Assembly: GCA_964016885.1 (NCBI GenBank)
Contig: OZ024743.1
Coordinates: 292,206,001-292,270,000, forward strand
Source of the DNA: Eledone cirrhosa
Lineage: Eukaryota
DNA: 64,000 nucleotides
Reading direction: 5' to 3'
The stretch's first letter is position 1; each line of letters starts with the position of its first letter. This document shows, one piece after another, positions 1-58,482 of this stretch. The notes beneath the pieces were generated by a model. It searched no databases, had not been told where the DNA came from, and saw only the letters and a list, made by a program, of their open reading frames with translations. Both the position numbers and the translations under genes were made by a program.

Positions 1-345
1 CTTTCGTCACACATTCTGTGACCTCTTCAGTGACTGGGGATTCATTCTTTTCTTTGTTTTTGTGCCTCTCCTTTGTTCTGTCCTATGCCATCTTGTTTTT
101 CGTAGATGGCGTAGGACAGAACAAAGGAGAGGCACAAAAACAAAGAAAATAATCCCCAGTCACTGAAGAGGTCACAGAATGTGTGACGAAAGAACTTTGA
201 CAATATATGAACAATCGTCTGGAACCAACCAACCAACCGGAAATTTATAAATTCCTAAATTTATAAATTTAATTTATAATAAACTGAAGTGAAAGCATTT
301 GGTGCGTCTGTTTCTTATTGGCAACATGACCGTCCCAAAGTATAA
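1..345. mobile_element. Palindromic HHR-bearing cassette (PLE pLTR/retrozyme-like), cut by the window edge, ending at (TA)n
   Basis: 1-93 is the near-perfect reverse complement of 104-192; the right arm contains an HHR motif and runs into (TA)n at ~347. Confidence 0.75.
159..201 (+). ncRNA. Minimal type I hammerhead ribozyme
   Basis: gtca-CTGAAGA-g-GTCACA gaatg TGTGAC-GAAA-g aa c-TT-tgac. Stem I gtca/tgac, 6-bp stem II with one extra G before it, predicted CUU site. Confidence 0.75.
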
Positions 346-613
346 CAATATATATATATATATATATATATATATATATATATATATATATACAGATTAG
401 AGCAAACATCACGAGCGCTCTATCTCAAAATTATTTTTGAAAAGCATTAGAAATGCTCAACCGGTAAAATCTTGAAAATAAAACAGAATACCAACCAATA
501 CTTATTACTAATTTATACTTATTCCTAATTAAACTATGTTTCACTCGGAAAAATTTGTCAGCATTTTCTTTTCCTTTTTACTAATATATATATATATATA
601 TATATATATATAA

Positions 614-1238
614 ATGTATCCGAGTTTTTCGAATTCCATTCATTTGCAATTATGCTAACAAGCCTCAATTGTATACCCATGTCAGTAGAATGAACACTTC
701 ATTCTTGCTCTTGTGTTGGCATGCGAACAGAACTGCAGACACTAATGTTTTTGGGTATCACCCTTATCAGTACAGCTCACTGTTCACCTGCCAAACAGTG
801 AAAATATGTGCTATTTTCAAAAATACACAGTGACATATCGGCCTAATTTGTATATTAGCAGACTGGCTGATCAGTCAGATCTGCATTTTAACAGATCCAC
901 TGATCAGCCAGATTTGCATATCAGCTACTGGCCAGTCAGTTTCCTGTATACAGAGCGATAAATGACCGGCTTTGCCAAATTCAAATAAAAGAGAAAATTT
1001 CGCTCTACAAGGCTGAATACAATAAATGTAATCTGAGTTTTTCGAATATTAATAACATTCGATTCATTTGCAATTATGCAAACAAGCCTCAATTTTATAG
1101 CCATGTCAGTAGAATGAACACTTTATTTTTGCTCTTGTGTTGGCATGAGAACAGAACTGCAGGTGAACAGTGAGCTGTACTGATGAAGCGTGATACCCAG
1201 AAACATTAGTGTCTGCAGTTCTGTTCGCATGCCAACAC
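614..1238. mobile_element. Rearranged HHR cassette with direct and inverted duplications
   Basis: ~620-738 is repeated directly at ~1033-1162; ~712-792 is inverted at ~1159-1238. Starts at (TA)n. Confidence 0.65.
1175..1218 (+). ncRNA. Type I hammerhead ribozyme (stem II mismatch)
   Basis: ctgta-CTGATGA-a gcgt gat accc a-GAAA-ca ttag tg-TC-tgcag, GUC site. The inverse copy at ~734-777 has a perfect gggt/accc stem II but a mutated core. Confidence 0.7.
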
Positions 1239-1429
1239 ACGTCTTCACGAACCAAACTATCGTTTCCCTGTTTTCCTTCGGTTGCAACGTTTTTCGAAAT
1301 ATTTACTTCTGCGTTTTATGTTTTCATAATGTCGTAATGCAGACAGCCATACATACAGATATATATTATAATGATGCGACGTTATAGCTTTGTATCTATC
1401 TAAAAAGACAGACTAAGAAAGAGAGAGAG

Positions 1430-1603
1430 ATCGCTAACCGGCGCCTAATGCGGTCCCTAGTGCATTGAAAATTTGAAATAGCTTTTGCTCAAAACATTCA
1501 GAGGACCATAAGTATTACATGTGTAAAGTTTGAAAAAAGTCGGTTGGGTGGTTCTCGAGGTTTAGGGATACAGACAGACATTCTCAGTTTTAAATATATA
1601 GAT
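1430..1603 (+). mobile_element. Probable non-autonomous Helitron/Helentron-associated element 3' part
   Basis: tgtgtaaagtttgaaaaaagtcggttgggtggttctcgag...acagacagacattctcagttttaaatatatagat resembles ends of Lep1/HINE-type invertebrate repeats. Recognised from memory only. Confidence 0.35.
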
Positions 1604-55761: not shown

Positions 55762-56239
55762 TATATATATATATATATATATATATATATAAATATATAT
55801 ATATATATATGTATATATATATATGTATACACATATATATATGTGTGTATGTACACTCCACATACATGTACATACACTCATATACAAATACTCATACACA
55901 TATACTCACATATACACACACACAAACACATTTATATATATATACACACACATACACACATACATATACACATATATATATACATATATACACATACATA
56001 AATATATATACACACATAAATATATTTCCATATCATACATAGATATATATTTACTCATGCAATTACGGGTGGTTGTGTACCTTGTTCCCTTTAGTCATAA
56101 CCGCATAAACCTAAGGAATCTAAAACATAAAAAGGTAAAAAAATAAGCATGAATGCATATAATTAGGGGAAAGGGGTACTAATAAATGTTACTCTATATA
56201 GAATTATATTGAGTTGCTATTTAGAATATTTAATTAGGT

Positions 56240-58058
56240 TCATAGTATTTAAATGTTCTTCGTATACGGTGATTACAAACTATGATCAGTTCCTGCCTTT
56301 TATTTAATAAATCGTCCTTAGATTTAGCAATTTCCAAGATCTCCACTGAACATAATCTGCATTCCCTCCTGTTCCCAAGATATGAAGTTATTTGTAGAAT
56401 GGTGTTCCACGATAACTTGACATCTATTTGTTTTCTTTTTATAATTATTTACCGCTTCAGCTAAAGATGTGGTGTTAGCAAGTTTAGTATTGGTGAAACT
56501 ACTAGAGTGTGCGTAAAGTCTTTTCTTAAATGTGTTTGATGTAGATCCTATATATGTTTTGTTGGAGTCTGTAGTAGACACAGTGCATTTTTATATTACA
56601 TTATTAATCAAATAGTTGCTATTTAAGGGGCAAATGCTTCTATTTCTGCAATTACAGCCATACGTAAGATGGTTGTTGTGGGTGCCTATACTATTCTCAT
56701 TAACCCTTGAGCTATTCCTATTGTAATTAATGATAGCAGGAGAATGAAGGTTGCTTTGTAAGTGGTTTGGTGCTATGGTTGTATTGTGATTTTGTGTAAT
56801 GTTGTTTTTGTGTTGGTGATTTGGGTGGTTGTGTTTTCTAGGTTGAAGGATTGTATTATTTGCCTTTTTAAAAGGTGCAGTCCAATTTATATTATGTTGT
56901 GGTGGTGTAGTCATATTATTTTTAAGTTATAAATGTTGTAGTTGCTTATTTTTTGCTGGAGATTGCTTGACGTAGAGTATGAGAATTTAACAGTATATTT
57001 GTTAAATATTTGGTGGTATCTGTGGTTTGGTGGAAAATGTTTATGTAGAGTTTCAAAGAATTTTTTGGAGATTTATCCAATAGTTTGCAGGTTGAAGGGT
57101 GCGTTGTACCATGTTATGTTTCTTTTGCGGTTTTTAGTTAAGTTATTATTAACACTTATATTATTGTGTTGTGTTCTAGAAGAATTCCTATGGTTAGTAT
57201 CCTTATTTGTGGAATTTGGTAAATTACCATGGTTGTATTTGGTGTTATTATTGGGTAGATTATGAGATTTTGAGTGCTTAGTATTCATATGTGGGTTGAT
57301 AACATTGGTCATAGATCGTTTTAGTAATAGTTGGTGTGGTTTTTAGGTTGTTTGGTGTAATAAGAATAACCACTTTAGTTATTTGTTTCAATGGTATTTT
57401 TTGGTGTTTGTAGTTTTTTGCTAGGTTTTATATTTTGGTCCATAGTAGTGTTGGGGATATATGAGATTTTTTCTTCATATCCACTTCTAGTTAAGGCCTC
57501 GTTGTAGAAGGTTGCATTATTATAAAATATATCTTCATTGGAAGATAATTTAGAAAGTCTAAGAGATATGTTATATACTAAATTATTGAGTATAGAGCCA
57601 GGGTGGTTAGATCGTGAATGTAAATAATGTAGATTCTGGTTGGGTTTGTGGTAAGGTTGATAAGTATTCATAGAGAGGTCTAAGGTAACGTCAAGGAAAT
57701 TAGCTACTTTTGAAGTGTTTTCAAAAGCGATGCTAAGGCTGTAATAGTCCTTGAGGAATTTTCTAATTTGTTTTTTTGTTTTTATATATTGGAATTGCTA
57801 AGATCGTTAGATAACAATAGACAATCATCCAATAAAGACCACCTTTGAGGTGGGGAAAAGAGTCATGAATATTATAGAGGAGAAATAGTCGAACGAGCTC
57901 TGTAACTTGAGAATAGTCCATGGAACCCATCGTAATATCGAATAAGTTGTTATATGTGTTTCTTGTCCAGTATTCTTCTTGGAGGTTTAGTAAGGTTTTT
58001 CTAGCGTGAGTTATGATGTTGATTTCCTCAGTAGATAAATCCGTTGCTGTGGATACCT
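56240..58058 (-). pseudogene. 5'-truncated, frameshifted Naiad-type PLE (RT + GIY-YIG)
   Basis: FDITMGSMDYSQVTELV, GLY.DD, NFLDVTLDL, YLHSRSNHP, RKRNITWYNAPF, KHFPPNH, CNCRNRSICPL, YIGSTSNTFKKR, CRLC, LNKRQEL...CNH. Confidence 0.88.
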
Positions 58059-58092
58059 CTGTGTATATATATATATATATATATATATATAT

Positions 58093-58482
58093 AAAATCAA
58101 AAGATGGTTAAAAGATTTCCATGTATTTTATTATGCGCATTGTAAAAACAAATATAATCATGGGATGTTATTTGCGTTCTCATCAGATAACATAGGAGAC
58201 ATGATATGAAGCTTAAAAAACACTTTCGGGCAGTGAAGTTTTAAATCAACATATTGTTAAATCAAGCTTCATATTATGTCTCCCTATTTTATCTGATGAG
58301 AACGCAAATAACATCCGATGATTTTATTTGTTTTTGAAATGCGCATATTAAAATACATGGAACTCTTTTAGCCATCTTTTGATTTTATATTATTTATACT
58401 CCAGTCCTATAAACTGTTGAGTGCTACTTATCTGATATTTGCATTGCATTATTGTGCTGCAATAAAACTCACCTCCTACATT
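58093..58482. mobile_element. Palindromic family B HHR cassette in (TA)n
   Basis: 58093-58214 is inverse to 58264-58388; plus-strand HHR at 58286-58354; the minus copy has GAAA mutated. Confidence 0.85.

Follow-up and report, generated by a model that had tools for sequence, protein, structure and literature searches.

The islands of sequence that lie between (TA)n tracts in a 64,000-nt stretch of the genome of Eledone cirrhosa (assembly GCA_964016885.1, contig OZ024743.1, positions 292,206,001 to 292,270,000 of the forward strand; hereafter the window) are, with little doubt, the 3' ends of many families of hammerhead-carrying Penelope-like elements (PLEs), together with a few non-coding retrozymes. 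The window has a GC content of 34.5% and contains 91 TA tracts of at least 10 nt, within an assembly of 3.0 Gb. An initial annotation, made from the letters alone, had described the islands as hammerhead ribozyme cassettes from many unrelated families that share (TA)n as a landing pad. Much of this is real and extends to the whole genome. What had been taken for cassettes are mostly not self-contained but truncated or folded-back ends of the PLE pseudo long terminal repeats (pLTRs), and their junctions suggest that TA is likely both the target and a product of the insertions. These are known kinds of elements, at an unusual scale and with a new twist at the junctions.

The ribozymes, self-cleaving by prediction, were identified with a structure-aware type I scan that required both cores (CUGANGA and GAAA), helices I to III and a UH site. 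It found 14 intact hammerheads in the window (15 if a longer stem III was allowed), compared with a mean of 0.12 in 100 local shuffles. The same was true of an independent sample of 60 stretches of 10 kb, taken at round coordinates from 13 large contigs (600 kb), with 40 hammerheads versus 0-2 per shuffle, so that shuffled sequence does not reproduce the motif density. The 23 sites claimed by the initial annotation fared unequally. Fourteen are intact type I folds (163, 14984, 35785, 36094, 36481, 40027, 41980, 52771 and six further ones, all in 54050-55601) and eight are damaged or variant-core members of repeated families (1180, 10404, 15985, 34492, 44210, 45822, 47256 and 58293), the weakest being 10404, with a stem I of 3 bp, and 1180, which has one other locus. 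The remaining one, 1875, did not hold, being no more than half a core (the 5' half) in the middle of a foldback, more than 1.2 kb from the nearest TA tract. Other sites had been missed (36326, 39520, 58186, ~760, ~7370 and 15362), as had the islands at 10678 and 33571, which are 3' halves of hammerheads cut inside stem II. Variant cores characterize four families, those of 10404 and 44210 with CCGA and those of 45822 and F33571 with U3-A8; the core-plus-stem-II pattern of F33571 has 1,201 matches in the genome. Among 17 related hammerheads, 13 of 19 pairs change on both sides, a value reached in none of 500 shuffles; helix III was fixed by the search pattern in this count and kinship inflates it, with slid controls far lower. 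Helix III is palindromic in 26 of the 40 sampled hammerheads. An Rfam scan gave no hammerhead family in the best 150 of 213 rows, nearly all of them low-complexity, microRNA-like matches that were not used.

The islands group into about 16 families, several of them with two to six copies in the window. The idea of a different, unrelated family at each site, sharing nothing outside the core, has therefore to be abandoned: 36094, 47256 and 58293 are ~90% identical, 34492 and 35785 86%, and 36326/36481, 39520/40027 and 7370/10404 are also pairs. The size given for the islands (150-600 bp, bounded by (TA)n) applies to part of them, since several sites are the ends of elements of 1-4.7 kb and some of the bounding TA is internal to the element. 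The search for coding parents succeeded for seven of the ~16 families, which adjoin PLE frames; three are non-coding and six have no identified parent. The parent frames belong to at least four lineages with 22-28% protein identity between them where alignable. They combine a reverse transcriptase (RT) with a C-terminal GIY-YIG nuclease, the arrangement of endonuclease-bearing (EN+) PLEs, here seen for these seven families only; window pieces match Pfam RVT_1 and GIY-YIG, and RT-nuclease frames of 775 aa were found in loci L237 and L239. Every linked frame has its nuclease at the C terminus, unlike Naiad elements, in which the GIY-YIG domain is N-terminal and which lack a canonical hammerhead. 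A protein homolog search gave 19 relatives, all unnamed proteins, at 32-40% identity.

Hydra-type frames adjoin F58293, the F36481 group (whose relatives flank such open reading frames, ORFs, in loci L235 and L236), F33571 and F35785, the last by one locus (L331) and at 35-47% similarity only. In the first three we found a DKT motif, a CxCX5C linker, no CCHH and insertion into (TA)n; their RWK-like motif reads RW-I or RW-R, not RWK. By the form of the linker (CX2-5CxxC, with a CCHH nuclease), compared by eye with the published alignment (PMC8557442; here and below the literature is cited from the sections consulted), F52771 would be Neptune-type and F163, with a GIY-YIG domain 340-345 nt upstream in loci L050 and L084, Nematis-type. 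The three clade labels are thus provisional, resting on motifs and not on a tree with reference elements. F10404 belongs to a decayed PLE at 7205-10595 with a partial linker only. No linked ORF was seen for F14984 in 14 other loci or for F15985 in 14 other copies. In L237, a copy of F52771, the 775-codon RT-nuclease frame shares part of its length with an upstream frame of 468 codons in a different phase; this overlap, with that at 49948-52556 of the window, suggests a programmed frameshift.

The three non-coding families consist of dispersed tandem arrays with units of 310, 507 and 659 nt, each with one predicted hammerhead, as in retrozymes, and with longest ATG frames of 26, 46 and 29 aa, respectively. 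The 310-bp unit is 99-100% identical across many chromosomes; a variable-gap pattern for this family over-counted reverse matches and its total was not used. Apparent units of 852 nt in F15985 and of 1,025 nt in F44210 turned out to be local duplications, and for this reason neither family was called a retrozyme. A further retrozyme-like array, of 468-bp units with a TA tract inside each, was found in loci L057 and L241, and related cores occur in many loci.

The association with TA is restricted to one side of the ribozyme. In the 600-kb sample, a (TA) tract of at least 12 nt lies within 300 nt downstream of 90% of the 40 hammerheads, compared with 18% of random positions. With one hammerhead per locus and family the downstream figure was 25 of 30, for a same-locus null with a mean of 10.2 and a maximum of 18 (500 draws), while the upstream figure (12/30) was about that of the null. 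The expectation that hammerheads lie closer to (TA)n than chance was thus borne out downstream and not upstream, and the link belongs to the 3' end of the element. The sample, with 30-44 hammerheads per 600 kb, extrapolates to 1.5-2.2 x 10^5 ribozymes per genome. One exact core subtype has 26,868 matches in the genome, versus 41 for a control pattern, and four family-end motifs have 11,699, 3,262, 2,022 and 955 (these patterns each also demanded A or T at one downstream position). Published figures are ~2,000-9,000 minimal motifs per genome in schistosome and vertebrates (PMC4209133), and ~5,000 hammerheads in a mussel and 126,247 in the axolotl (PMC7229834). Conversely, the edges of TA blocks coincide with repeated ends, in register across loci, in at least 227 of 712 cases, versus 41 of 710 control positions; in a larger set of loci, 231 of 467 TA blocks touch some repeated end and 128 a hammerhead family, both lower bounds.

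A way to understand the relationship between element and tract is to look at where the copies stop. In the families examined they do so at one or two fixed sites, at which the element's own sequence continues with a few T/A letters. These fixed 3' ends are internal TA-like patches located roughly 80-350 nt beyond the core, and (TA)n follows nearly all of them. Among the 100 matches listed for F58293, all 97 terminal ones run into TA or (CA)n, and the remaining three continue in the direction of the ORF. In all 11 loci shown in which a 310-bp array reaches an end, it stops before TA at position 1 or 285 of the unit. A short TCTA/TA patch precedes 20 of 20 ORF starts in F52771 and hardly varies among 100 read-through copies; as this patch belongs to the element, lying immediately upstream of the start codon, the TA at 52559 does not represent a target. 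F35785 and F41980 also hold internal TA or TG repeats. In foldbacks one arm usually stops at the long end and its partner at the short end, the two ends differing by ~26-100 nt. The whole has the hallmarks of PLEs, with pLTRs in partial tandem, an inverted truncated copy and an optional tail, the inverted pLTR with its tail having been described before (PMC8557442, PMC3846280). A target-site duplication is not discernible within (TA)n. The commonest island, F33571 (16 of the 60 sampled loci), is nearly always cut or folded back inside stem II, which suggests that the RT stalls at the ribozyme hairpin. At 1239-1315, and in L102 at 1016-1460, family sequence is fused directly to another family or to a diverged relative, and such fusions suggest template switching between RNAs during one insertion.

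Both the pre-existing target and the added repeats can be read from the junctions, for which we have counted by eye terminal and read-through copies among the first 100 genome matches per family. On the 5' side, where no priming is expected, TA is present in 11 of 23 plain F52771 junctions, versus a background of 7.5% (one or two of these rows are tandem read-throughs), which points to tracts that existed before the insertion; 5' counts were kept for this family only, the references of the others being incomplete or diverged. F33571 foldbacks have TA at the far end in 54 of 63 cases. On the 3' side, (TC)n of at least four units is found in 18 of 95 terminal F52771 junctions versus 3 of 100 read-through ones (p=3e-4), and is absent from ~219 ends of three other families. 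In 14 TC-tailed copies the 5' flank never carried (TC)n (0/14), while TA was there in 10. The F58293 ends have (CA)n of at least four units in 6 of 97 and no (TC)n. Those of F44210 have (CT)n in 8 of 56 and duplications of 7-11 nt of their own junction in 6 of 56, versus none in 43 read-through copies (a duplication of 4 nt occurs in one of them); the left flanks of this family are unreliable, with an incomplete or diverged reference. Such family-specific repeats at ends, rare in read-through copies, point to stutter of the RT at priming. A landing-pad guild of PLEs (seven coding-linked families) and non-autonomous hammerhead elements (three non-coding families) is supported, with a link on the 3' side, and the suggestion that insertions may help to multiply TA tracts gains evidence from the junctions. 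The (TC)n(TA)n(GA)n block at 44026-44173, whose (GA)n part is the stutter tail of F44210, could illustrate a route to mirror-image compound microsatellites. F15985 showed no stutter of another unit; its (TTA)n tail, first taken as such, stems from one duplicated locus.

From these junctions we consider probable, as a whole and with the stutter included, the following course of events. The GIY-YIG nuclease, with the zinc finger of the linker, would nick (TA)n, and the nicked 3' end would pair with the short UA patch downstream of the ribozyme and prime reverse transcription. The RT would reiterate the first few template bases before elongation, leaving added repeat units, and synthesis would usually break off 100-400 nt on, in many cases within the hairpin of the ribozyme. 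The self-complementarity of (TA)n would allow either strand to prime on UA patches, and second-strand priming on them would give foldbacks. The template is probably ribozyme-cut, circularised RNA, as has been proposed for PLEs (PMC4209133), since the patch would be lost from a cut RNA that stayed linear, and circles would account for both the permuted units and the arrays. Retrozymes would be mobilised by a protein borrowed from the PLEs. With each insertion one tract would become two, gain in length and offer a new target. A bolder extension, which we hold as tentative and somewhat more doubtful than probable, is that PLE RTs, sisters of telomerase, routinely add repeats in the manner of telomerase, and that, with tracts split at each insertion and repeats carried inside some elements, a guild of 10^5 hammerhead elements is a main engine of the (TA)n and compound microsatellites of this genome, feeding itself by the creation of targets.

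The extra repeats might also have been inherited, if uncut read-through RNA carried the (TA)n or compound tail of the donor and paired with the target through it, with no stutter. The minimal hammerheads of PLEs cut poorly in vitro (PMC4209133), so that such RNA could persist, and the fixed ends would come from the donors. We regard this as unlikely, however, since the (TC)n of F52771 is found on at least five junction backgrounds and in many lengths, there are several distinct F44210 duplications (one of them triple) and even the two arms of a single foldback differ, (CA)n versus (CT)n, in L211. Somewhat less probable still is that the targeting is real and that the additional units derive from later slippage of the DNA or from the choice of pre-existing compound microsatellites. 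Terminal junctions lie next to long TA tracts and might have a higher mutation rate than the patches of read-through copies, but seeds of one or two units would need to reach 10-40 units in copies diverged by 3-8%, and the same seeds are constant in read-through copies. Compound microsatellites are common here and one F41980 end has a non-templated (AC)n; yet the remainder of a (TC)n target was found on none of the 14 opposite flanks, and duplications specific to an element cannot derive from the target. That there is no landing pad at all, the elements inserting anywhere and making their own TA tails, would agree with an enrichment that is downstream only, with the lack of TA at about half of the plain 5' junctions and with the TA tracts carried inside some elements. 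It seems very improbable to us: TA at the plain 5' junctions is about six times the background, different families meet tail to tail across single tracts, and a (TA)n preference has been published for Hydra and Naiad elements (PMC8557442).

Several observations weigh against targeting by PLE ends followed by stutter. TA was missing from 12 of the 23 plain F52771 5' junctions and from both ends of one copy (L127); a link to a hammerhead family was established for just 128 of the 467 sampled TA blocks (a lower bound), and six families have no identified parent. The stutter predicted for F41980, (TG)n or (ATG)n, failed to appear in 61 terminal rows, nearly all of them pure TA, and one end of this family has an unpredicted (AC)n. 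The read-through pattern for F52771 allowed up to 40 nt and could hide long expansions, yet none of 18 length-unbiased copies was expanded. No empty allele was seen: a search among the sampled loci gave 159 candidates, those seen being mostly chance pairings of element ends and none clean, while in three sequencing runs (one sample) the unique flanks equalled the assembly exactly and repeats swamped the joints, and RAD-seq (restriction site-associated DNA sequencing) had no depth at the unique left flank. Finally, an abundant TA-ended family (43242) has neither a hammerhead nor an ORF in 14 other copies. It occupies 42369-44025 in the window and occurs in 11 of the 60 sampled loci; its fixed TA ends and foldbacks are like those of the hammerhead families, and its interior has a long TATG-rich region. 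It could be a Naiad end or an unrecognized passenger.

The elements of the window are the following.

1-347, forward: right part of a foldback pLTR end (F163), core at 163, of a Nematis-type PLE by its motifs; the left arm extends ~280 nt past the window start and ends at a TA tract
657-1315, forward: F1180 foldback, hammerhead-like motifs at 1180 (forward) and ~760 (reverse); TA on the left side only
1822-1953, no strand assigned: foldback with the 5' half of a core at 1875; not intact and not at a TA tract
7205-10595, reverse: decayed PLE, RT and C-terminal GIY-YIG at 10237-7784; TA at both outer ends
7480-7205 and 10302-10595: 3' pLTR and inverted pLTR of this PLE; CCGA-core motif at 10404
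10678-10871, forward: F33571 foldback, 3' half of a U3-A8 hammerhead cut inside stem II; Hydra-type PLE end
14840-15113, forward: F14984, hammerhead at 14984
15175-15581, reverse: foldback; its hammerhead at 15362 is damaged here and intact in L023
15752-16239, forward: F15985, long-stem-II hammerhead, intact in most of 14 other copies
33571-33766, forward: second F33571 foldback, between TA tracts
33842-34210, forward: Hydra-type GIY-YIG fragment, beginning at a TA tract
34470-34570, forward: damaged F35785 copy, cleavage triplet changed
34733-35866, forward: F35785, 3' region with internal TA and TG repeats, hammerhead at 35785; the pLTR continues into a Hydra-type ORF in L331
36012-36191, forward: short-end copy of F58293, hammerhead at 36094; TA on both sides
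36224-36667, forward: F36481 foldback, hammerheads at 36481 (forward) and 36326 (reverse)
39474-40320, forward: non-coding 507-nt tandem unit, 1.6 copies and an inverted piece; cores at 39520 and 40027
41659-42329, forward: non-coding 659-nt unit, circularly permuted, hammerhead at 41980; the unit itself includes the TA at 41754
44173-44374, reverse: F44210, CCGA-core hammerhead; putative (CT)n stutter tail at 44129-44173
45594-45987, forward: F45822, hammerhead of the U3-A8 variant; in L084 the family has tandem copies with a spacing of ~590 nt
47065-48960, reverse: F58293 Hydra-type PLE, 5'-truncated; GIY-YIG at 48927-48631, damaged core at 47256
48965-53705, reverse: Neptune-type PLE (by motifs) in partial tandem, with inverted end, GIY-YIG piece and pLTR with hammerhead at 52771; internal TA patch at 52559-52577, decayed ORFs at 52556-49055
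53706-53856, forward: (TC)n(TA)n tail of the inverted F52771 end, abutting the 310-bp array
53856-55760, reverse: young non-coding retrozyme array, 4.7 x 310 bp and an inverted piece of 1.4 units, six hammerheads; both outer ends are the two fixed sites of the family
56050-58063, reverse: Hydra-type PLE, 5'-truncated, beginning at a TA tract; its end yielded no hammerhead
58094-58481, forward: F58293 foldback, long end at 58481 and inverted short end at 58094; cores at 58293 and 58186

Other repeats share the window with them. A SINE-like (short interspersed element) repeat of ~185 bp at 18282-18477 has about ten more copies (20106-63829), 70-96% identical and with ATT-type tails, one of which interrupts the PLE at 47065-48960 (at ~48322-48506). 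On the reverse strand, a non-LTR RT frame of 1,157 codons (Pfam RVT_1) at 60030-63711 has (TTA)n on either side and may belong to a further retroelement that targets microsatellites. The higher-GC regions at 2400-4200 and 5060-5420 resemble decayed LINE (long interspersed element) fragments, 13702-13998 is a weak Hydra-like nuclease remnant (27% identity), and the 132-bp foldback at 14361-14492 has no copy in the 600-kb sample.

The landing pad of the PLEs is already published, also for Octopus, since almost all Hydra families were reported to insert into (TA)n (Craig et al., 2021; PMC8557442); the same work proposes that the linker may steer microsatellite targeting in Neptune and Naiad elements, and its supplement gives a (TA)n preference for Hydra-1_Obim, with a hammerhead, and for three Octopus Naiads. 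Our Hydra-type elements resemble those described in the C-terminal GIY-YIG, the RW and DKT motifs, the CxCX5C linker, the lack of the CCHH cysteine pair, the hammerhead near the 3' end, the (TA)n insertion and the 5'-truncated inverted copies. They differ in that at least five Hydra-type lineages are found in this window, against one Octopus Hydra family in that supplement (PMC8557442), and in having tens of thousands of ends, U3-A8 cores and dual fixed ends (Hydra-1_Obim being known to us by its description). F52771 and F163 share with Neptune and Nematis elements the CX2-5CxxC linker, the CCHH nuclease, the partial tandems and the inverted pLTR with optional tail, but F52771 also has an upstream ORF in another frame and the TA/TCTA patch just before the start codon.

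The ribozymes agree with the minimal hammerheads of PLEs (Cervera and de la Pena, 2014; PMC4209133) in the type I fold, the palindromic helix III, the U3-A8 variant, the extra or unpaired base opening helix II and their occurrence mostly alone or as opposite-strand pairs 100-700 bp apart. They differ in abundance, with ~2,000-9,000 per genome there and an extrapolated 1.5-2 x 10^5 here; the sections consulted of that report make no mention of microsatellite targets. The non-coding arrays are like non-LTR retrozymes (Cervera and de la Pena, 2020; PMC7229834; bioRxiv 10.64898/2026.07.22.740005), i.e., dispersed tandem units with one type I hammerhead each, alongside PLEs, although the 507- and 659-nt units exceed the described 170-400 nt and the arrays here have PLE-type foldbacks and stop within (TA)n at fixed TA patches; the word microsatellite is absent from the main text of PMC7229834. 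The consulted passages of the Octopus vulgaris repeat annotation (PMC13282606) mention neither hammerheads nor retrozymes. The putative stutter resembles the slippage on the 3' repeats of LINEs (UnaL2, cited in PMC3747384) and telomerase in that the enzyme, on starting reverse transcription, copies several times over the repeats for which the element's own end is the template. Here, by contrast, it would involve an internal TA patch of 2-10 nt, dinucleotides or short duplications specific to each family, and a PLE RT. We found no report of repeat tails made by PLEs, of retrozymes targeting (TA)n or of such an abundance in cephalopods in the literature covered, which did not extend to subscription journals, Repbase reports and bioRxiv supplements. 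Within this coverage we found no precedent for the scale, for retrozymes sharing the target or for the family-specific repeats and 9-11-nt duplications at ends, rare in read-through copies.

The priming of PLEs, the formation of foldbacks and the preference for microsatellites have been named as open questions (PMC8557442), and the thousands of junctions available per family are a natural read-out of PLE priming. A role of PLE proteins in mobilising retrozymes has strong circumstantial support in the young 310-nt retrozyme, which shares both target and foldbacks with the PLEs. If true, the addition of repeats by PLE RTs would bear on the origin of telomerase-style reiteration and would explain part of the TA richness of this genome, and many of the short foldback repeats of such genomes would be PLE ends.

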